A DNA stretch of 57,021 bases, the filler included, from Sphacelaria rigidula (lineage: Eukaryota), in NCBI GenBank assembly GCA_964200075.2. It is 5 parts of 5 records of this genome, joined end to end, with 100 filler letters (N's around TTAATTAATTAA, not from the genome) between each part and the next. Parts side by side here need not be neighbours in the genome. Positions count along the whole stretch, not along the records: positions 34,274 to 45,597 come from CAXNAA020005063.1; 4 more parts are not named here. One strand, 5' to 3'. Below, in pieces: positions 11,326-45,697 of the stretch (position 1 is its first letter; every line of letters starts with the position of its first letter). The notes beneath the pieces were generated by a model. It made no database searches. It worked only from the letters and a program-made list of their open reading frames with translations, and was not told the origin of the DNA. The position numbers and the translations under genes were made by a program.

Positions 11326-11425
11326 NNNNNNNNNNNNNNNNNNNNNNNNNNNNNNNNNNNNNNNNNNNNTTAATTAATTAANNNNNNNNNNNNNNNNNNN
11401 NNNNNNNNNNNNNNNNNNNNNNNNN
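11326..11425. other. Artificial contig spacer (44N-TTAATTAATTAA-44N)
   Basis: Six-frame-stop linker inside an N run; identical at all four gaps. Confidence 0.97.
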
Positions 11426-16915: not shown

Positions 16916-18479
16916 ACTCGACCACATATGTGTGAATCTCTTTGCCGCGGCCTTGTCCAGTTTTTTCAGATCTAAGTTCGCCCACTGGAGTCTGCTGCAA
17001 TATAGCACGTGTATGATGACAAAACACGGGCGTGCCGTTGTAAGATTCCATCACACCATTGATGTCTCCCGTTCGATCGACTATTTTATTTTATTGTTAT
17101 TTCCGCACATTCATCCTGTTTCTCGAACCCGTGGTCACAGACGTAGGCTGGCTTTTGCCAGTGTCGTCACTACTATTCGTTACATCAGATAAAAGCGTCC
17201 ATCGAGCAGTTCCTCTGAAACCCCCAGAAACCAAAGCCGAAATGAAATAGAGCAAGAAAAGATGTATGTCAAGAACGCAAAGGGAAGGAGTCTTATCCAG
17301 TGCAATCGCTGATGGAGCCCAGCCAGCGCGATGCGGCGCCATGTTTGGCGATAATACTGCGTCTCTTCGTGATGTGGGTGGCGTGTGAACCTCCCGTGGT
17401 GAGTCTCTCACGACTAATTATTGATAAAAAAAATCGCGGCACCCAAGACTGAATAGCCCTTCGATGCCTATTCAACAGATGATCTACTACGGGCGATCGA
17501 AGGGCTGACACAACAGGCTTCCGCTTCAAGTGATGGTGGACTGTACCCCTTACTGGCCAAGCGGGAGGGGGGGAAACCCCTCTTCGTCTTCACTCTATAT
17601 CTTAATGCTGCTCGATGTCTTCCCTTTGACTTCCTAGTACTGCACTGTACCCCTTTTTAGGCTCTTGGGTGCCAGACTTTCTTTCGAAACACTCATCACC
17701 CGCCGGCGTTTGATGCCGGTTTAGCTCGATGCAAACCCGAAGCAATACTGTTCTTCGTCCAGCTTCCTCTATCTTTTTCGAGCAGTACCCTCGACGATGA
17801 AGACATTGTTTATTCCGTGTTGTCGTCGAGTAATGCTACGGTAGGGATGGACAAATACTTTCTGAGGTTAGAATTGTCAGAGCCTTTATCTCATCCAAAA
17901 CAAGACTTGTGAAACAATTGTGAGTATGCCAAGATTACTATTGCAATGTGCTAGGGATATCCCGAATGAATTTGCAAACGGGGATGCCCTGGCCCACATT
18001 CTTGTGCATCTACAATCGTCAAGAGCCCCTGAACCAGACAACATTTTGCTCAAAAAGTGCACCCCTACCGTAGCATTGCTCCGTCGCCAATCATTCCATA
18101 TTGCTTCACCGTAGAAGTTGCTTTTCCACATCTTGACAGCGATCTACGAAGGAATTATGTGAAAGATCTCGCGGACAAGGGTCTAACCCCTTGCCCGCGA
18201 AGGTAGGCCACCTGCTCTATCGGCATCAAAATTAACCTGAAGGAATTGTGCGCAATCCAGATAGACTACCCGCACCGCGGTCTAAGGGTTAACCTGCATG
18301 TGAAAGGTCGTGTTCTGTATGGTATATCGGCTGAAACTCGGGTGTTTACAGATGTGTAAACAGGGCATTTTAGGGGGTAAATTCCCTTCCGAACTGTGTC
18401 GGAGTGCTCGAAACAGGGCTCGATACCCTGCCGACCCTACCGAAAATTTCCGCTACACATTCTTGTATGGTTTGGCATG

Positions 18480-22749: not shown

Positions 22750-22849
22750 NNNNNNNNNNNNNNNNNNNNNNNNNNNNNNNNNNNNNNNNNNNNTTAATTA
22801 ATTAANNNNNNNNNNNNNNNNNNNNNNNNNNNNNNNNNNNNNNNNNNNN
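22750..22849. other. Artificial contig spacer
   Basis: N44-TTAATTAATTAA-N44. Confidence 0.97.
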
Positions 22850-34173: not shown

Positions 34174-34273
34174 NNNNNNNNNNNNNNNNNNNNNNNNNNN
34201 NNNNNNNNNNNNNNNNNTTAATTAATTAANNNNNNNNNNNNNNNNNNNNNNNNNNNNNNNNNNNNNNNNNNNN
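34174..34273. other. Artificial contig spacer
   Basis: N44-TTAATTAATTAA-N44. Confidence 0.97.
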
Positions 34274-36720
34274 AGATTCGTTAGGAGCCCCTGAACCAGA
34301 CAAAATTTCGCGAAAAAAGTGCACCCCTACCGTAGCACTGCTCTTCAAGTCCAGCTGGTGTCGGTAAACGGGGCGAAACGGGTACAGAGGTTTCACTTCA
34401 TTTTGAGGTGCAGTGCAAATCGCTCATTTCCGCTGCATTGCACAGCAGAAATCGGGCTTACAGTAGTAGGTGTTGCATCGAAGAATATAGCAAAGCTGGA
34501 AAGAGCAACACAACAGCTGTTGCATGGAAAGATTTAGTAAAGCAGTATAGAGAGTCAGGCAATCCTAGCATCCACCGTGACTCTACTCATTCAGGTCTAC
34601 ACGACAAGATTTTACCCTTATATAGAGTAACAGTATCCAATCGTATTACCGTGCACATATCATCGCCGTTGATACTCAAAATTTTGTATCGCTTCTTCTC
34701 TTTCCCATTCGAGCCGCCCTCGGAGGCGGGAGTGGAAAATGCAGCAGGTAACATGACATGTTTGGTGTATGCCGCTAAAATATCACGGAGTTGATTCTTG
34801 TATCGAGTAACGGCGGGGGTCTGGTGAAGCTGTGCTGGTTAGGAACAACCACAACAGTATCGAACCGCGTGACAACTGTAGTGAACGATATATATATTCA
34901 GCGTCGCGTAATAAATCGGTACCCACATTGTAGTTTCTCGGCCATTGTACTGTATGTTAGCTTTGTTCCGCAGCACACGAATGATCACGTTGGGAGCAAG
35001 CAAATGCCGAACGACTGACAGAAGTACGCAAGCATCGGTGCAAACGTTTGTGCAATACGAAATCCAGCAGTAGTACAGTACAGTACAACACAGTACAGTC
35101 GCTTGAATCCTAGACGGTGGTGCGGGTAGTCCATCTGCGTTATGCATACTTTTCCCCAGTGGATACTGATGCCAACTCAGCAGGTGACCTACCCTCGTGG
35201 TCAACGGGTTAATACTCACAACCATAGCGTGGCTTACAGTCCCCCCTCTGCGCGGTGTATAGAGCAGCATTGTTTGTTTCACTTACATCCCTGGGTGTCA
35301 AGGGTCATCACCTCAACGTTTTCATTGCTGTGTGCGAGTTTCACATTTCGATCCCGTGCAATCACCCGTGAGGGCAAGTTATTCTTTCAAGGCGTAAGGG
35401 AGATCATTTGTCACATCTGAAAACCTGCCTCATTTATATGGCAATGTGTATAGGGCTTACTCAATGCATGGTGACCGAAAATTTGGCTCGAGTGGGTCGA
35501 TTTTTAGCGACATGAGGTAATATCTCGTGGAACAGTAAGGCACGATTAAGATGTAGGAAGATGATGAGGGATAACTGGTAGCATTCAAATGACAACAGTG
35601 CGTCGCATCAGGTTATAGGAAGATGGGGTATCAGCCTGGGTCGTGCACTGTGCAAGCGTTGAGCAAAACTAATGTTTCGTGACAAGATGCACACAGCAGA
35701 CGGCCTGCTGTCTTACAAATTCAACAGCAATAGACAGTACGGAAGTACATCAAAAGTTTGATTCAAACAGCATGGTGTAGGGTATCTCCGATTTTGAACA
35801 GGGCACAGCAAGCTCCAAATCAAGCAGGCAGCATTGCAACGGCAGCCCTGCACCCCAGGATATAGATATACATGTGTGCGCTTATTGCAGACACGAGATG
35901 CCACAGAAACGCGGCTTCGAGTGGCCAAGAATAAGCGCTGTATGTATGCAGTAACTTGACTCAAAGCGACAGCATCAGCGCATCTGTTCGGTATATCTCG
36001 GGCTGCACAATCAGTCCCACGTTTCACGGTAGCGAGTGACGGTTCATGAATTCAAATCTAACCCACATGCAACATGGGCTAAACGTCATACCCACGTCAT
36101 CCAGAAACTGTGAAATCACTTCAAGCGGGTAACCCGGTGTTATCAGTATCAGCCGTCATTTCATTCCCCTGCATAGGTTACAGCTTGTTATAGACGCGTT
36201 ATGGTCGTGCACAGATGCTGTAGAAATGTGGCTTCGCGAGATTAACACTGCATGCATGCGGTAGCTTGACTCGGTCAGTTGAATTTTCAAAATTTCGAAT
36301 CATCCGCAATTATTCTGTAAAATGTATCTACGGATATGTATTGTCTGTGTACAACATGCGGACGTCGGGACAGCTGACTTTGCTGAGCTTCCCTGCGGAG
36401 ACACGGTCTGTAGACATTACATGAGCTAACTTGCATCACGAGCTGAAATGCGGGTAACTGCTGCAGCAACCTCCCCAGCTTGACCACCCATATGCTTGCA
36501 TGGACGTGAGGGTGTCACATATCATCGCTGGCCATTTGGTGCGCTGCTACGCACTCCCAGACGTCAACACGATTATCACATGAAGCGAAGAACGGCATTG
36601 CACCTCAACCTTTTATTGTATAAGGACTGAAGCCTCACGTCAACTGATGTTTCGTTAGCACGAGCACTTCGCAAATCGTAGGAAGGAGTGATCATACGTC
36701 ACGGATGACAACATTCAACA

Positions 36721-36970
36721 CAATAGTCCCGGTTGGAAGCACCATGATACAAACGAACGACAGTCTCCAGTTGTTGTCAACATTTGCTTAACTCTACAGT
36801 GCAGATTGATCACTGAACTAGGCAAATAACAAAAATTAGGTCAACGAGTACGAAATTTCACTATCTCGGGTGGGACCTTTCATTCTACTTATTTGACTGC
36901 CATCCACTTGTGCACGAGTTCGTTCATATTCATTTACTACAGGTCGATCCTTTCACATCTGTACATAAAG
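36721..36970 (+). repeat. ~250-bp diverged direct repeat, copy 1 (copy 2 at 45172-45422)
   Basis: Shared blocks CCATGATACAA, CAGTCTCCA, CTTAACTCTACAGTGCAG, GATCACTGAACTAGGCAAA, TGTGCACGAGTTCGTT, ATTCATTTACTACAGGTCGATCC. Confidence 0.9.
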
Positions 36971-37124
36971 TACTCAAGCTCCAAACCGTCTCATCGTTAT
37001 TCTTGTAACAATCGTAAGCTCACAGCACGTGGGGAGACAGTCCAACGCAGTACAGTACACGTCGATCGTCAGGATATCTTTGTTCCAAGCTTCAGGTGAT
37101 TCGATTTCTTTTGTTCCTTGGTAG

Positions 37125-37390
37125 TGTTGACACCAGAGCCTTCTCGAGAAGTTCTGAACACCAGGGCATCATAGCATTGCACCGATTCTTAGAAAGAATC
37201 GGATTCAACCAGATGTAAGAGGCATGTTCATGTACTCCGTATCTTGACGGATTACTTAACATCCTCACCCCTGACCGCAGGTACTAGCCAGTTCCCGCGA
37301 TCAGCCCTCCGGGCGCACACCTTTGTTCCGAATCAACGGCCCATCATTATACTATCCCCCCTCCACCGCATCACGCCGCGATCCGTAACA
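37125..37390 (-). repeat. Putative 3' LTR (~266 bp)
   Basis: On minus begins TGTTACGG at 37390 right after purine tract GAGGGAGGG; ends ...GTCAACA at 37125 (TGTT/AACA termini). Distal boundary uncertain, no partner LTR present. Confidence 0.55.
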
Positions 37391-37516
37391 CCCTCCCTCA
37401 GTCCTAGGATTGGAAACCCTGGAACTGACGTGATTTACACAATGGATCACCGCGTTACCATGTCCCTCTTCCGAGTGCTCAGCGTCGGGATGTGTAGCCG
37501 TCGATCTTGATAATCG

Positions 37517-37657
37517 TTCTGCCGGGTTAGACCACGTAGGGAATTTAAACACCGTGCAGGACGATCCCTTCCAGTCCGGAAGCGTCCTTGATCTTGTTGA
37601 CTGCTCTGCCGGGTTAGACCACGTAGGGAATTTAAACACCGTGCAGAACGATCCCTT
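37517..37657. repeat. ~55-bp duplicated segment in the element's 3' UTR
   Basis: TCTGCCGGGTTAGACCACGTAGGGAATTTAAACACCGTGCAG(G/A)ACGATCCCTT twice, ~88 bp apart. Confidence 0.9.
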
Positions 37658-37664
37658 TTCCCCA

Positions 37665-39420
37665 CTAATTAGATCCTGAACCGGCTCTGGTACCCTGTTC
37701 CTTCACCGCATTTTTCCGCACCTCCGACGGCGTCATCTCTTCCCAATCTCCATCCTCATACTTGATACGGTAATACGGCTGACGGAAGTCGAACACTTCC
37801 CCGTTGAACTCTTGCCGCTCACCTTGGTTGTCCACAAACTGTTTAGTCCCTCGAGGAATGAGTCGCAAAGCTTCATCCCGAGCAAAAGAGTCTCTTTCCG
37901 CTCGAGATGGGTTAACGGATGAGCTCGGTTTGGTTTGCGGGTTATATAGTTCCCACAAAGCATGAAACACGTCCAACTGTAGCCCAGTGAAACTGTCCAT
38001 AACTTCCTCCTCTGAAAGCCGGTGAGACTTGGTTCCGTCATTAAACAACCCCCGATAGGCCCACTCCCAGGACGATCCTGATCCCAACACCATTTTCCTA
38101 TCTGTCAATGTATACAGTTGCGGAACGGTCGTGATCTCCTCAGCCAACCCCAAATCATCCCCCCACACTAACTGAGAGTATTCGTCGGGAAACGGATGCC
38201 GCAGCTGTTCAGGGCGCACGTGAAATTTCTTCACATTGGCTGCCGAGACCGTCCGTTCACGTACCTTACGTCCTTGCATACTGACCTTAAGGCTGAGACC
38301 GGGTATCACCACTTACTTGCTGTATCTTCCATTGCCCCGTCCACAAGTCGTGCACTAGTTTAGCTGGCACATTTTCTTGTACGAGGGAGCTGTCGGATTG
38401 TTTCACCAACACTAGATCCCCTACCTGAGCTCGCGACCCTGCTGACTGGCGGGCCAACTCGGCGTTTCGAGCCAACCGTACTACCTCCCTTTTCTTGTGG
38501 CGTTGGGTCAACAGCTCGCGAACCTCCTTCAAGTTCTGGCGTTGTTGTTCCACCCTGTTATTCAACGGTGGAGATTCCGCCTCGGGTGACACCGCGTCTA
38601 ATTGGGTGCGTGGCTCGCGCCCAAAAAGCAGCTTGAATGGAGTCGGGCTGTTAGGCAATGCTAGATCGGGAGTAGTACGGTGAATCCACACAGCGGGGTC
38701 TACATACTCATCCCACCTTTCCGGCCATTGCTTACAGAGCTCGGCTAAAACGTCGTGCAACCGTCCACCGTACCGTTCCACCGCGCCTTGACCGCGAGGG
38801 TGCTCTGCGGGCATGATCCAGCTTCACCTTCATCCACCGGCATAAATGGTTCACTACTTCCGACGTGAACTCCCCCCCAGCGTCACTCCTTAAAAAATAG
38901 GGTACCCCGAACGTCAAGAAAAGCTTCAACAGACATTTCGCGACGGGCACCGTAAGCTTGGCAGCCAGTGGAGAAGCAAAGAGGACCTTGGTTGCTCGAT
39001 CCACGATTATCAGCAAGTACCGGTTACCTGAGGCGGAAACTTGCTTCATGTCTGATATGTCCATCTCTAACACTTCCCATGCCCGCAGGAATCGTGCGGG
39101 TCGCATCGCTAAGGTGTGACTGTTGGTACGCTTGCGCCGGCGACATCCACACGACAACACGTATTTGCGGGTATCGGCAAAACGACCAGGCCATTCGTAC
39201 CGTGCGTTGACTACCGCAGTCGTCCTCATTACCCCAGCATGCCCGTGCATAGTGTGTACCCACGCAAGCAGGCCTGGCACTAAGCTGCGTGGGATAGCTA
39301 GTTTGGCTGGCTCCTTAGGGGAGGTGTACCATAACAGATTATTCTCGTCTAGCACGTACGCATCCCGCCTCTTACCAACTCCTTCGTCCTTAGACCTGCC
39401 CTTCAACCGATCCCTGATGG
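37665..39420 (-). pseudogene. Gypsy integrase (HHCC, DDE, GPY/F-like) with chromo-like and Tudor-like C-terminal extension, frameshifted
   Basis: ORFs 38732-40090, 38287-38814, 37665-38312: HTMHGHAG...SCGC, WEVLEMDI, LRSDAGGEF, HPRGQGAVER, WTGQWKI; C-terminus FNGEVFDFRQPYYRIKYEDGDWEEMTPSEV. Confidence 0.88.
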
Positions 39421-39719
39421 GTCCAAGACGGGAGTCCCGTCCTTGAAATAAAGCGAGTTGCGTTTTGTCCATCAAGATTGCCTTCGCCTGCTCGAGAACG
39501 GTTCTAGGGTTACCTGTACCTGATATCAGCTCCTCAGCTGAAGCCTCCCCCCTACCATAGTCTTGGTCCGACTTATGTTCTGCCGCGGGAACCGACGAGC
39601 GAGTTACTGCGGCTCCCCAAGTTTCTGGCGACCCATCCTCATGGGGCCACATCGCTGCGAGCGCACTTAGGCCTACGTCCTCGCTTCGAATCTGAGTCAA
39701 ACTCAACAACCCTTCCGCT

Positions 39720-40860
39720 TCCAAGCTCGATAAAACCGCCCCCATCATCCACGGATGAGCGAAATCAGCTACAATATCTGACATCGCATCGGGGCTTACC
39801 GTGGGTGGGGTCTCGTAATAGTCGAGCGTGGTCGCGACTTTCACAAAAGCGACTCTTTCCAACTCTACCGCTTCCTTCCATACCCCTGCATCCGCCTTGT
39901 GGGGTGTGAATTCCTCGCGCCGCGGTTTCCCTCTCGTCAATCGAGGACGAGTTAACCTAGGCAACGGATCCTCGAAACGGTGAGTACCCTGCCTTGCCCT
40001 GTCGGCTCCAAGAAATAGGTGCCAGTCCGTCCCAATAGCTGACCCAGTGGGGGGCACATAACAGCGTACGCTTCCACCCGCTGCTTCCACGCGTGCAGTG
40101 GTTTTTCTCCTTGCTGATCCGCCTTCAGAGCGACCACATAGGTTCGTTTCTTCCGATACGGAGCGCCCACTTGCACGACGGAGACAGACGCCTGCTCGAC
40201 GCAGCAGCCGGCTCCGCTCAGTAGCGGAGTTACGCTCTTCTTCCAGCCTGGAGAATACACCTTTACACCTGTATTCTCCAAGATCAGCGTTGTCGCTGAC
40301 TCTGAGGAGAGGAAAGACTCGACCAATTGTCGGGCACCTTCTACGGATTCCGACTCCCCCGCACCTTTATCAACGGGGGTAACCCTACCCGTATCTCCTA
40401 CCAACACTTCTGGTTGTACTTTCGACACTTTCTACGATAGCCCCCTCAAAAAAACGGCTAAAAGTGTCACGAAAAAATGACCATAAAGCGTCTGATGTTC
40501 GGGTTCAGGCTGCATGAAGCGCCTCATATTGGTGACATTGGCTACAACGAACACAAGCGTGGGAATTCCCGGCTTTTCGTTGTGCTCGGCTTTTCCCATT
40601 CCGATTTACGTGAACATTTTGCCTCCCAAAACCTTGCACTTTTGGAGGGGAGGCTATCGTAGAAAGTGTCCTTCTCCATCAAGTTGTGGAAAGAAGGGCG
40701 CCCCGGAGTCGTACGTACCAACCTGACTCCCTTTCCAATCTGGTTCACCCTAACGCAATCCAACGCTTTCCAATCTGCATCGGTGGCTGTCACTACCTCC
40801 AAGAACTTCTCCGCGGCCAGGATGTTGCCCCCGCCTCCACAATGGACAATCAACGCGGGA
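39720..40860 (-). pseudogene. C5 cytosine DNA-methyltransferase-like domain inside Pol, interrupted by a MITE; catalytic PC absent
   Basis: Ordered motif equivalents: I ALIVHCGGGG, II VVTATDAD, IV PEVLVGD (no PC), VI LILENT, VIII VGAPYRKKRTYVVA, TRD-like FEDPLPRLT, X-like DIVADFAHPWMMGAVL. Confidence 0.7.
40424..40670. mobile_element. 247-bp MITE inserted in the DNMT-like domain
   Basis: Perfect 19-bp TIR GACACTTTCTACGATAGCC; flanks TTTC/CTTC (4-bp TSD, 1 mismatch); removing the element and one TSD restores the frame ...FHNLMEK-VQPEVLVGD.... Confidence 0.85.
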
Positions 40861-40899
40861 GGTCGTTGCTTAACCGGTCCGGTCATATGGTCTTCGGAG

Positions 40900-42480
40900 T
40901 CAATGATAACTCCTTCCCCCGTTTCCGGTGGGCTCCAACGTCAATGCCATCAGGTCTGCGGATTCTTTCGGGTACTCAGCCTCCAGTTCCTTCAGCAACA
41001 TCCCATCTAGTTTGGGTCCTTGTGGTCCATCGCCTCCGCCTGGTTCCGCTTCGCTATCATCGTCAGGGAATGACACATCAATGTCACTTTCCTTGGGCTG
41101 GCTCCCTTGCAGCCTAGACAGGGCGTCTGGCAACTGGTGTTCGCGTCCAGCTCGCCACTTGAGGACCATATCATACTCCATCAATCTCAGTGCCCACCGG
41201 TGGAACTTAGGCGACAAGTTTTGGCTACGGAACAACCATGTCAACGCACTGCAATCCGTGACTAGCGTAAACTCTCGCCCCCATAGATATGATCTGGATC
41301 GCTCTACGGACCACAAAACAGCGACTACTTCCCTCTCTGATGCTGATCTTTCTTCATCCGCTCGAGACCATCTATGGCTGGCGTATTCAATGATCCATTC
41401 CCTTTCATCCGCCTCTTGGGCCAGGGCGGCCCCTGCTGCGAACTCTTAAGCGTCTAAGTGTACCACGGATTGTTCATTCCAATCCGGATACGCTAAGATC
41501 GGATACGACATCAGAGCGCTCTTCAAGTCGAGGTATGCCTATTGCTGTTGGTCCCCCCACGGGATCTCCATCCTCCGGGCTTGCTTGGAGGCGAATCGTG
41601 GGTCCCTCAGCAAGTCTGTGAGTGGTGCCGCCATATTGCTGTACCCTTTCATGTACCTTTGCAGATATCCGGTCATACCTAAGAACGACCTTAGCTCTTC
41701 TACCCTCTGCGGCTCCCTCAACTGGGCGATCGCCTCGATCTTAGACTGAGAAGGTCGTATTCCCGACGCGTCGATCGTCATCCCCACGAAGTCCTGTTGC
41801 TGAGTGCACCACTGTGGTTTCTGGAAATTCACATTGAGGCCTGCCTTCAGCAGGCAATAGAGCACAACCCTCAACTACGTCATGTGGCCGGCGAAAGTCG
41901 CGCTAGGCCACAAAATATCATCCAACCAATTCTTGACACCCCCCGCTGGCAACAACGCTTCAGATACTGTTCGGTGAAATGTCGCGGGTAATACCTTGAG
42001 TCCGAATCCACAACGCTGATATGGCCATAAGTGCCCCCGCGCGTCGCGAAAGGCGGTGGGGTGTCGGTCCTCCTTCGCCACGTCCAACTGGAAAAATCCG
42101 CTTGCTAAGACCACACTCGTAAAGTGCTTGGATCCCGCCAGGCTACTATACATGGCCTGCATATCCCCCGAACCACCGCTATACGACTCGAGGAGTTCGT
42201 TTAGTCCACGAAAATCCTGACACAACCGTGAACTACCGTCCTTCTTCCGCACCGTGACGCAAGCGGCTACCCATGCGGACGTCGACGGCTCAATGAGCCC
42301 CCGCTCCGCGAATTTCTGAACTTCGTCTTGTATAGCTGTTGCTTGTTCTGGTGAGTACCGCCTGGTACCGGCAGCGAATGGCTTGCACCGGGGATCTTTC
42401 AGTCGTAGACGTAACCGTTCCCCACGCGCCGCTTTCACCTTCTTGGGGTCCACCGCAAAACGTCCTGTTTCGTTGAAGTC
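40900..42480 (-). pseudogene. Gypsy reverse transcriptase and RNase H with in-frame stops
   Basis: ORFs 41875-42453, 41539-41874, 40900-41316: IEPSTSAW, LASGFFQL, TAF, GFGL, WLDD, LRSFLGMTGY, EYASH, EREVVAVLWSVE, TDCSAL. Confidence 0.92.
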
Positions 42481-42482
42481 TC

Positions 42483-43523
42483 CTAAGATGGATAACAGCT
42501 GTATCTTCTGCGTCGGACCAACTGACCCAGGTTCGCTTCCATGAAATCTACTCCTATGGCTTCAGTTGTGTCCTTTTCCTCCCCTTCCTGCGGTTCCGGC
42601 GGCGGATGGGGAGGGGCGGGCGCAGTCCCTCGATCCTTCAGCTTCCACTTGAGCGTGGTGCCCGAGTCGGACACGTACAGATTCTGCAGCCGCTCGCGAT
42701 CTCGGACATTCACGGCCATAACTTTCGCCACTATAATACCCTTCTTCACTAGGCGAGCATTCTTGGCCGTGTTGACCACCTTACATACCAACAGTAGCTG
42801 TGGATCCCACCACTGCACTCCCCTAGCTACCCCCATCTCAGCTTCCTCATCTAAATCGAACAACTTTCGAGGTTCGATCAACACGAGTTGGCGTTCCTGC
42901 GGTTGAGGACCTCGCACGTAGCCTGGGATTAGCTCGCTAACGAAGCCTTCCAATCGCGCGTCCTTCGTCAGGCTTAGAGGCCACTGAAGTGTAGCGTCGT
43001 CCTCCCACGCCGCTCCAAGGCTCTTTCATACCTCATCACATGCTGCCAGATCGCTCTCTCCCGACAACAACCCTGTCGGGTCGTCGCTGAGCGCTCTCGG
43101 CTTGACAGCACAGAAGAGACCCCACCCTGCCGAGTCTCCCTGTCCAGTGAGGTGATCGGCGTTAACGGCTCCGAGTTTTGGTGAGCCATTAGACACGAAT
43201 CGCACCCACGGGGCCTCCGGTGATGGTCGGAACCCCGACTGACCCTCAAAAGACAGTGTGCTCTTGCTCCTTCTAAAGAATCTTGCCCCCAATATGAACC
43301 CGTACGGCAATCCATCGACCACCGTAACCCATACCTTCCTTATTCTATCCTTTGGATGGAACCGAATCGGAATTACCGCTGACCCCAAAATCTTCATCGG
43401 CGGCGTCCTGCTGTCACTAGGATCCGCTGCCCTCAGGAATCCTGCTCCTTGCCGCTGTAGTTTGCCCGATATGTTCCCCCAAATCACCGAAGACTTCCAC
43501 CACTGCTTTGATGTATAGTTCAT
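42483..43523 (-). pseudogene. Retropepsin protease C-terminal half plus degenerate dUTPase-like spacer; gag and protease active site missing
   Basis: VTVVDGLPYGFILGARFF (ILG motif); GVARGVQW..CKVVNTAKNARLVKKGIIVAKV resembles the beta-rich PR-RT spacer of some Gypsy Pols. Confidence 0.7.
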
Positions 43524-43890
43524 TTAACCGGTGCGGCGTTCACGTACAACAATACAATTTTTGCTAACGGGTGTAGCCAGCGCCACGTTGTTCCTGCCAG
43601 CTGTATCACGCATCGAAAATCGTGCGCGCGGCTGTGTTGCATTTAAGGGAGACAACGGGCGGTACCAATAATCTCTGGCAACATTTATTTGATGTAACAC
43701 CGACCCAATGTGCCAGTGTCGCGCATTAGCGGACGGTAATTCTGTGGGGCATAGTGCATTTAACCGGGGCGGCTTCACGTGTAACAATACACTGTGCAAC
43801 ATAATGGGTGCATACAGCGCTACATTGCTCCTGCCAGCTGTATCGCGCGTCAAAAATCGTGCGTGCAGCTGTTGCATTTAACGGATACAA
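43521..43890. repeat. Two diverged ~130-bp direct repeats at the point where the Gypsy element is truncated
   Basis: CATTTAACCGG..TTCACGT..AACAATAC..TCCTGCCAGCTGTATC..AAAATCGTGCG..GTTGCATTTAA at 43521-43650 and 43757-43885. Confidence 0.8.
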
Positions 43891-45171
43891 CGTGTAGAGA
43901 CTCATGCCTTTCGACATCAACTCCGCGCTTCCTGCTCAATCAAGAATAGCTGAAGATTCTGACTCTGAACTGTAAGAGCATCGAATCGAACTGCGTGGGC
44001 GGCACGCCGTTTTACTTTTCCTAAATGCATCGCGCACAAGACTCGCTCATAGCCACCTACGCGCAGGTTGTGCAGTAAGCCTGGAGCGGGTGCGGCGCTG
44101 ATATCAACTCTTCTTGACAAAATATCATTTTTGTGCCGTCTTCCTTGCTACCGTATCGCTGATTTGGGCGCGCGTCCGTTTCATCTGCCTCAAGATACGT
44201 GCGTAAAGCATGGCGGTAATAACTGCCCCTCCACCTCACCAGTCACGCTGTGAGCGATATCGCTACGCTAACGTTGTGGACACGCATCTTCAAGCGGCGC
44301 AAGCACACCCGAATGGGCCTTAGTCTTGAGGTTCATCTCGTGGCCTCAGCTCATGTATCACTTCATGTTTTCTTTCTTCGGTTGAGTCTCAGCAGACATA
44401 CAATATTCCGACATCATACTCTTATTTATGTGGGTATGTGCCCACTGACTCGCGTCATAGGCGGCGCATTTACAAGCTCCACTTATTACAACAATACGCA
44501 CGACAAACGTGAATTTCCGCCTGCAGCTGCTTCATCTTGAAGCATCTTTCTCGCAAGTGCAAATCTTTGTGGCTTCCGGTTCAGGCTATCATTCCTCTTG
44601 CTCTATTGTGCGTTGTTCGGTCTATGATCCTGGGATGATAATCTCGTTAATTGATGTTATGGCATGTGGAGTTCTGCACGCGTTTCATGATAGAAGCATA
44701 GCTCTTGCCCGCTGTTGCTAGAGGCAACGAATCACACTTCATTCATTCTGTACGTACGCGGCAGAATTGACATCTTCGCCTGAGCAGCATTGTATCTCGC
44801 AGTTATTTTTGCGGGGTACCTGTCATGGTCAAGAGTACATTGATTATTTTTAATTCGACAGATTACGTTTCTTCACTTTAACCCAAGCGCGGTGGGAACC
44901 ACTATAGCGGTCTCCGTCGCTTGATTACCTTTGTGCCGTCGTAAGCGTGGGGACGAGCGCGTCGCTCCCAGCGCGCATCTCCCAGCGCGCATTATGATGG
45001 CTGATTATTTGCTTTGTCACGTGATGCCCTTGCTAACATATGACGGGGTGTTGAAAACGCACATGTTTTGCTCTCTCTATTAATAAGAAAATTGAGTATC
45101 TCAGTGAACATCTTCCTGAACATTTTACCTCTCCTGGCTTGAGCTGCACCGCATATGATATGATCGAATAC

Positions 45172-45422
45172 AATCGTCCCGGTGAGAAGCGCCATGATAC
45201 AAGTAAACGGCAGTCTCCAATTGTTGTCAGCATTCGCTTAACTCTACAGTGCAGTTGATCACTGAACTAGGCAAACAACAAAACTTCGGTCAACGGTTAC
45301 GAAATTTCACTATTTCGTGTGGGACTTGTTATTCTACTTATTATTTGACTACCATTCATTTGTGCACGAGTTCGTTAATATTCATTTACTACAGGTCGAT
45401 CCCCTTCACATCAGTTCATAAA
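45172..45422 (+). repeat. ~250-bp diverged direct repeat, copy 2
   Basis: Aligns colinearly with 36721-36970. Confidence 0.9.
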
Positions 45423-45597
45423 ACAGCAAATTGTGCGAATTGAGGTTTAACTCTGAATTGAGGCTCAAGTAGGCAACCCGACTTGCGAACTGTTTGTAGC
45501 AGCAGTACCGAGGACAAGCTCTTATTCGGAAACAGTAACCTGTGGAGGTGAACCCGTAACGCTTCATGTTAAGTATGTCGAAGTATCGAGAGAAGTT

Positions 45598-45697
45598 NNN
45601 NNNNNNNNNNNNNNNNNNNNNNNNNNNNNNNNNNNNNNNNNTTAATTAATTAANNNNNNNNNNNNNNNNNNNNNNNNNNNNNNNNNNNNNNNNNNNN
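45598..45697. other. Artificial contig spacer
   Basis: N44-TTAATTAATTAA-N44. Confidence 0.97.

Follow-up and report, generated by a model that had tools for sequence, protein, structure and literature searches.

DNA methyltransferases (DNMTs) carried by retrotransposons are already known. They have been described in long interspersed nuclear element (LINE) and DIRS elements of Symbiodinium (SymbioLINE-Dnmt and SymbioDIRS-Dnmt3) and in a Gypsy element of Klebsormidium nitens (KnitGypsy-Dnmt3) by de Mendoza et al. 2018 (PMC5890265), where these domains are reported to have conserved key residues, a Ka/Ks below 0.2 and CG methylation activity in yeast. A preprint (10.64898/2026.05.21.726589) describes EpiLTRs, that is, long terminal repeat (LTR) elements of Cymbomonas and Euglena with a DNA adenine methyltransferase (DAM), a DNMT and a chromodomain. 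In Ectocarpus, Gypsy-10_Ec32 represents a Tudor-Gypsy lineage that has a homolog in Tribonema minus and was reported as the first transposable element (TE) with a Tudor domain (PMC12477816); the main text and four supplement files of that paper, figures aside, mention no methyltransferase for this lineage. The element considered here is a Ty3/Gypsy-type LTR retrotransposon with a C-terminal Tudor domain, located on the minus strand of a 57,021-base stretch of DNA from Sphacelaria rigidula (the window, meaning the whole stretch analysed). Between its RNase H and integrase lies a domain predicted to have the fold of a C5 cytosine methyltransferase (C5-MTase), from which the catalytic Cys is missing; the family to which it belongs has an Ala-Cys catalytic loop, and two clades of that family have no Cys at all. 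Our literature search (figures and bioRxiv supplements lay outside it) found no paper describing this domain. The explanation that we favour, with moderate confidence, is that an old stramenopile Tudor-Gypsy lineage carries a C5-MTase fold whose Cys was lost in two clades, where the domain would have been retained as a folded non-catalytic module.

In the C5 mechanism the Cys of motif IV attacks C6, the Glu of motif VI protonates N3 and the arginines of motif VIII position the base (PMC4802922). The initial annotation of the window had proposed that the captured DNMT lacks the catalytic Pro-Cys, and this proved correct: the window copy has Thr-Gly at the corresponding place, with a Gly codon (GGT, 40389-40387 on the minus strand) at the position of the nucleophilic Cys. 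On the minus strand, Pro-Cys is not encoded between 40300 and 40480 in any of the three frames, which rules out that a frame change merely hides the motif. Where this Cys is absent, a covalent Cys-C6 intermediate should be impossible, so that the domain of the window's lineage would not be a C5 methyltransferase. The remaining motif readings of that annotation were borne out as well. That is, the Phe of motif I is replaced by His (H-C-G-G-G-G) and the motif X region reads V-A-D-F-A-H-P, without Gly-Asn (E-F-T-L-P-P in the long family members), while Glu-Asn is kept at motif VI (L-I-L-E-N-T) and motif VIII reads P-Y-R-K-K-R, the two arginine places being occupied by Lys and Arg.

The window contains a single copy of the element, and its pieces share no other, so that statements about the family cannot be made from the window alone. 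Searching 1.84 billion representatives with the 159-aa open frame at 39952-40431 gave 42 relatives at E <= 0.001 (best 8.5e-40), and a query with one of them, P0013, gave 12 polyproteins, two of which (P0043 and P0047) are named Ectocarpus sp. CCAP 1310/34. The clusters of ten relatives were looked up, and all ten were singletons from Logan, ENA or JGI. No further match came from a protein search with a window fragment restricted to near lengths, a search with the window-clade alignment returned five matches, all already known, and a single-protein query against metagenome contigs found no relative.

Residues were counted in a 52-row family alignment, in which the number of rows filled differs from column to column. 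The Cys column is Cys in 19 of 34 rows, Ser in seven and Arg in two, while single rows have Tyr, Phe, Thr, Pro, Ala and, in the window, Gly; the Pro row, the Ala row and one Arg row are row ends at this column, where the alignment is doubtful. The residue before it is Pro in none of the 34 rows and Ala in 23, and the loop consensus is G-(N/D)-A-C-(R/C). All seven long polyproteins in which the loop and the range from motif I through VIII are covered have kept the Cys. Thus only half of the Pro-Cys pair looked for in the consensus is there, the Cys in 19 of 34 rows and the Pro nowhere, and the suggestion that the whole family is Cys-less does not hold. Motif VI has Glu in 38 of 44 rows, the residue after it being Cys in 20 rows, Ser in 13 and Asn in two; the 20 rows with E-C include P0013, P0043-P0047 and P0001, while the window has E-N and the clade with Ser has E-S. 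At motif VIII, in a register taken from a weak hhalign alignment, 32 of 47 rows have Lys where the first arginine would stand and 34 of 47 have Arg at the second such place, and the place of the Gln is taken by Thr, Ser or Tyr. The motif II acid is present in 14 of 15 rows. The Phe of motif I (0 of 11 rows) and the Gly-Asn of motif X are absent across the family. As a whole, the family is a DNMT of strongly derived type whose loop is Ala-Cys.

The fold was judged on a family member and not on the window's broken copy: residues 425-800 of P0013 were modelled with AlphaFold from a 39-row alignment, giving a predicted local distance difference test score of 85.2 and a predicted template modelling score of 0.80. 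The model is a two-domain C5-MTase fold. All of the best 50 Foldseek matches listed are C5-MTase-fold enzymes or DNMT2 homologues, and all but one are methyltransferases (top 19 at E 1e-11 to 2e-9, best 1.2e-11). With VIA-align the model superposes on M.HaeIII (1dct_A) with a Z of 23.6 and a root-mean-square deviation of 2.8 Å over 262/324 residues, and on DNMT2, M.HhaI and DNMT1 with Z 22-23; these four are tied within 1-2 Z units, and no DNMT subfamily is singled out by the fold search. The best 50 VIA-align matches listed all have the C5-MTase fold and, covering model residues 2-315, take in the large as well as the small domain, the only non-methyltransferase among them being the carboxymethyltransferase 8yf3. 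In the ESM Atlas, 30 of 30 matches were PF00145 clusters, with a score of 0.94.

The identity of the stretch at 40413-40378 follows from three lines that agree, namely the family alignment, the register in which hhalign places E. coli Dcm and the order of the strands in the model. First, the window's G-D-T-G-R aligns colinearly to the stretch P-E-x-x-x-G-(N/D)-A-C-R of its relatives. Second, in the statistically weak Dcm alignment the family Cys falls on the Cys of G-F-P-C-Q, L-E-C on L-E-N and V-P-s-t-K-r-R on L-P-Q-H-R-E-R. Third, the strands of the model are ordered as in C5 enzymes, with G-N-A-C in the loop after the fourth strand, L-E-C at the end of the fifth and V-P-T-x-K-x-R before the seventh. 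Judged by the model, this stretch is the motif IV catalytic loop of a complete C5-MTase fold.

The presence of such a domain is barely visible to Pfam, which is why it could go unnoticed. PF00145 rises above its cutoff only in P0008 (23.2 vs 22 bits), six of 39 rows match it at E <= 0.1, and four long polyproteins have no PF00145 match at E <= 0.01. In proteins of the P0043/P0047 type the DNMT-fold domain occupies about 320 aa between RNase H and integrase, and Pfam does not flag this domain in the long polyproteins. From the window, phmmer searches of PDB sequences gave no match and two chance matches.

To locate the Cys loss we used a tree of 28 of the 52 aligned rows, calculated without the motif IV columns, the other 24 rows having too little coverage or no Cys column. 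The Cys state changes four times on this tree, compared with a mean of 9.6 for shuffled states, and none of 500 shuffles was as low. The window forms a clade with P0001, P0003 and P0006, the relatives closest to it among those that cover the loop (support 100/99), on a long stem, with Gly, Thr, Ser and Ser at the Cys position, the loops of the three relatives having Ala-Thr or Ala-Ser. A second Cys-less clade, of seven rows and mostly with Ser, is nested among Cys rows (support 93/97), and P0030 and P0039 are single losses among Cys rows. End branches within the Cys-less clades are 0.3-0.7 changes per column long, and P0001 still has a 226-aa open frame with 55% identity to the window. The loss thus appears clade-wise and is better placed on the stems, the lineages having probably diversified afterwards. 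The annotation's view that the changes exceed the decay of this copy is supported in that P0001, P0003 and P0006 are Cys-less too.

We therefore consider a retained, non-catalytic DNMT-fold module the most likely state of the Cys-less lineages. According to this explanation, an old Ty3/Gypsy lineage of stramenopile algae would carry the domain between RNase H and integrase, with Tudor at the end of Pol, and after the loss of the Cys the domain would have kept being copied as a folded module under constraint, as a putative non-catalytic DNA-binding or scaffolding part of Pol beside integrase and Tudor, or at least as a part whose misfolding the polyprotein could not afford. In the Cys-less clades the Glu of motif VI, the Lys/Arg of motif VIII and the conserved core of the fold are still present. 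Within the window clade, columns that are at least 70% conserved in the Cys rows average 0.62 in pairwise identity (n=45) vs 0.40 for columns less than 40% conserved (n=36; Mann-Whitney p 7e-4; Spearman 0.30, p 3e-4), which argues that the fold stayed under constraint once the Cys was lost; a weaker contrast in the same direction is seen in the second Cys-less clade (p 0.011). The residues kept include Trp, Cys, Glu and Phe, of low degeneracy. At the nucleotide level, 12 of the 24 listed coding differences between this copy and other genomic copies are synonymous, vs 30.5% expected (one-sided p 0.036), and none of the about 40 listed differences falls in the stretch 40378-40413. Each of the two tests is indicative of constraint, neither of them decisively.

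A number of points count against this explanation. Some of the signal in the protein-level contrast may stem from codon degeneracy and from conserved columns being aligned better, and the synonymous excess is weak, the 24 coding rows coming from about 40 listed differences while 384 more exist. The window clade comprises only four rows over the loop, three of them short predicted proteins on contigs of 0.9-2.6 kb that may themselves be decayed. Sequence methods support the fold poorly: the window's two domain fragments match no Pfam family, the family profile matches no PDB sequence, and the hhalign match to E. coli Dcm has an E-value of 0.13. Furthermore, the tree is unrooted, and the Cys-first polarity comes from the origin of the fold; loss is the natural direction because the Cys is indispensable to the enzymes from which the fold descends. 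Finally, the domain can persist in the polyprotein merely because a clean deletion is rare. As to the retained non-catalytic module that the annotation had put forward, its fold is real and its conserved columns are kept in the window clade, as a folded module of this kind would show, whereas its extension to the whole family was not supported, and the roles suggested for it, cDNA protection or target selection, are guesses.

A more specific idea, which we hold only tentatively, is that a captured C5 DNMT turned into a dead but selected DNA-reading module, gripping or flipping a base and serving in target choice or cDNA handling together with integrase and Tudor, in hosts almost without 5-methylcytosine (5mC). 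If this were true, it would be a transposon-borne pseudo-DNMT, of which the Ala-Cys members would represent an intermediate stage.

Plain decay, in which the family's DNMT works or once worked and the missing Cys is neutral damage in dead copies, is in our judgement the less likely explanation. The window copy is indeed a dead pseudogene. The frame of reverse transcriptase and RNase H is interrupted by in-frame stops (first bases 41877, 41541 and 41448), the tblastn path of P0045 switches frame near 42600, 40900, 40010, 38813 and 38310, the methyltransferase-fold domain itself is split over three reading frames and by an insert resembling a miniature inverted-repeat transposable element (MITE), and the two LTRs are 85.7% alike (233/272 aligned bases identical). 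The state of this copy is consequently uninformative on function, and to call it a pseudo-enzyme is trivial. Decay would also fit P0030 and P0039, which are single Cys-less rows among Cys rows, the window's Gly, which is one base change from a Cys or Ser codon, and the retention of Cys in more than half of the rows covering that column. However, all four rows of the window clade and all seven of the second clade are Cys-less, and independent hits at one codon are unlikely; moreover, conserved columns stay conserved inside the window clade, and the long open frame of P0001 has been maintained despite its divergence from the window.

The MITE-like insert sits 6 nt upstream of the motif IV stretch. 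Its ends are inverted repeats of 31 nt that are 84% complementary, the first 19 nt perfectly so, and these 19-nt ends occur twice in the window and nowhere else there (0 expected); as single-stranded DNA the insert folds into a hairpin (z -6.15). In four public sequencing runs the insert exceeds its flanks about 1000-fold in word depth, and in each of the three large runs (X1-X3) over 100 contigs break off at 40424 or 40670, with flanks that differ from one another (17 at 40424 in run X6). It is thus a very abundant MITE-like repeat, with C-T-T-T-C and C-T-T-C-T at its flanks as an imperfect duplication only. In three runs, contigs of other retroelement copies, about 90-91% alike, join 40418 to 40670, thereby skipping 251 nt, a length that matches the frame offset from one side of the insert to the other. 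The insert is secondary in view of these joins, and it accounts for one frame change. That it removed or hid a Pro-Cys is ruled out by the same joins and by the colinear family alignment, in which no residues are missing.

It is improbable that the domain is still an enzyme, transferring methyl groups by a changed mechanism, with another Cys or on another substrate (RNA or a cDNA-RNA hybrid). RNA 5-methylcytosine (m5C) methyltransferases use a Cys at motif VI, and the E-C rows at that motif, P0001 of the window clade among them, would suit such a mechanism, as would the preserved G-loop, motif II acid, motif VI Glu and motif VIII Arg; DNMT2, a tRNA enzyme, is also among the best fold matches. 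Against this, with E-N in the window and E-S in the second Cys-less clade, no alternative Cys is held in common. The Phe of motif I and the Gly-Asn of motif X, both missing family-wide, are parts of the cofactor pocket. In addition, Ectocarpus, the host of Cys-bearing members, is reported to have negligible 5mC, across the genome as well as in TEs (PMC12477816). As for a DAM-type adenine methyltransferase or an unrelated Rossmann-fold module, this is hardly credible: the motif I region G-G-G-G-N-I-L-A-A-E does resemble many S-adenosylmethionine-dependent enzymes, weak Pfam matches among 39 rows include Methyltransf_25 in two and Methyltransf_15 and MTS in one each (E 0.018-0.05), and LTR elements with DAM are described as widespread (preprint 10.64898/2026.05.21.726589), but the VIA-align matches listed above cover both domains, the motifs follow one another as I, IV, VI, VIII, X, just as in C5 enzymes, and the adenine-methyltransferase reading in particular is ruled out by the Foldseek, VIA-align and ESM Atlas matches together with the lack of any DAM family among the Pfam matches of the 39 rows at E <= 0.1.

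The window consists of five unrelated pieces of 11,324 bp each (11,325 for the first), joined by linkers of the form N44-TTAATTAATTAA-N44, and the element lies in piece 4 (34274-45597). Comparison at the DNA and protein level found no related element in the other four pieces. Pfam matches on the window frames, the LTR pair and tblastn together show a Ty3/Gypsy-type element, in which reverse transcriptase, RNase H, the zinc and core domains of integrase and, at the C-terminus, a PTM/DIR17-like Tudor domain follow in this order between flanking LTRs, with the methyltransferase-fold domain placed between RNase H and integrase. The element covers residues 1-2011 of the 2024-aa relative P0045 colinearly in tblastn, and the Tudor domain is likewise present in P0045, P0044 and P0013. 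Table 1 lists the features.

Table 1. Features of the DNMT-fold element and linkers of the window (positions along the whole stretch)
Feature	Position	Strand	Evidence or remark
Motif IV (catalytic loop) equivalent, P-E-V-L-V-G-D-T-G-R-V-T	40378-40413	-	codons, family alignment, hhalign
N-terminal domain part, motifs I-III, own frame; G-loop H-C-G-G-G-G, motif II T-D-A-D-W	40672-40940	-	tblastn with P0045, P0013
Central domain part, motifs IV-VIII and start of small domain, 159-aa open frame	39952-40431	-	42 relatives
C-terminal domain part, target recognition, motif IX/X V-A-D-F-A-H-P, third frame	39647-40054	-	tblastn with P0045, P0013, P0004, P0017; ORF 38732-40366
MITE-like insert with inverted-repeat ends, 247 bp	40424-40670	.	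lies between motifs III and IV and splits the domain
Reverse transcriptase and RNase H	40900-42561	-	Pfam PF00078, PF17917 (E 1.3e-22); tblastn
Integrase, H2C2 zinc domain and rve core, two frames	38305-39496	-	Pfam PF17921, PF00665; tblastn
C-terminal Tudor (PTM/DIR17-like)	37665-38312	-	Pfam PF21743, 31.3 bits vs cutoff 27.2
3' LTR, ends approximate	36700-36970	-	direct repeats; alignment to 5' LTR
5' LTR, ends approximate	45150-45425	-	direct repeats; alignment to 3' LTR
Linkers between pieces	11326-11425, 22750-22849, 34174-34273, 45598-45697		

Short direct repeats were also seen inside the element. Downstream of the Tudor frame there is a 68-nt direct repeat (37503-37570 and 37590-37657, 87 nt apart, 91% alike), and upstream of the protease-like region one of about 90 nt (43565-43657 and 43802-43892, spacing about 236 nt, 83-91% alike). 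Apart from these, 66 nt where piece 4 starts (34278-34343) are 89% like 18016-18081 in piece 2 and are probably another small dispersed repeat.

The published retrotransposon DNMTs keep their catalytic residues and can methylate DNA (PMC5890265). The full DNMT fold predicted by the model occurs in a Tudor-Gypsy lineage that has relatives in Ectocarpus, a brown alga for which negligible 5mC is reported (PMC12477816). Should selection maintain the Cys-less form, this would be the transposon's own pseudo-enzyme, and the passage from Pro-Cys through Ala-Cys to no Cys would provide a natural series for non-methylating roles of the DNMT fold. If, on the other hand, the Ala-Cys form is active, this would bear on whether brown algae are truly without cytosine methylation.

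Mammalian DNMT3L and plant DRM3 are catalytically dead host DNMT paralogues. They resemble the Cys-less domains in keeping the DNMT fold without the catalytic motif, and serve as non-enzymatic partners; however, they are host genes acting with an active paralogue, whereas here the domain is a module of a transposon polyprotein. Like the EpiLTRs, the element is an LTR retrotransposon that pairs a DNMT domain with a chromatin-reader domain. In the preprint's account (10.64898/2026.05.21.726589), though, EpiLTRs carry an adenine methyltransferase and a chromodomain, where this element has no DAM and has Tudor instead, and their DNMT is sister to DNMT4 and in Cymbomonas lies at the 3' end of pol rather than between RNase H and integrase. 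With the elements of de Mendoza et al. (PMC5890265) it shares a C5 DNMT domain that is part of a retrotransposon's coding sequence, in K. nitens within Gypsy Pol. Those domains were found with PF00145, whereas here one of 39 rows exceeds the cutoff; moreover, unlike the domains reported there, this family has no member with Pro-Cys and has two clades without Cys, and its element has a Tudor domain too and known relatives in a stramenopile alga. The element also resembles Gypsy-10_Ec32 as presented in PMC12477816, since both have a Ty3/Gypsy Pol with a C-terminal Tudor domain and the full-length domain relatives P0043 and P0047 come from Ectocarpus. From architecture and host, rather than from sequence comparison, we infer that the element probably belongs to the same lineage.

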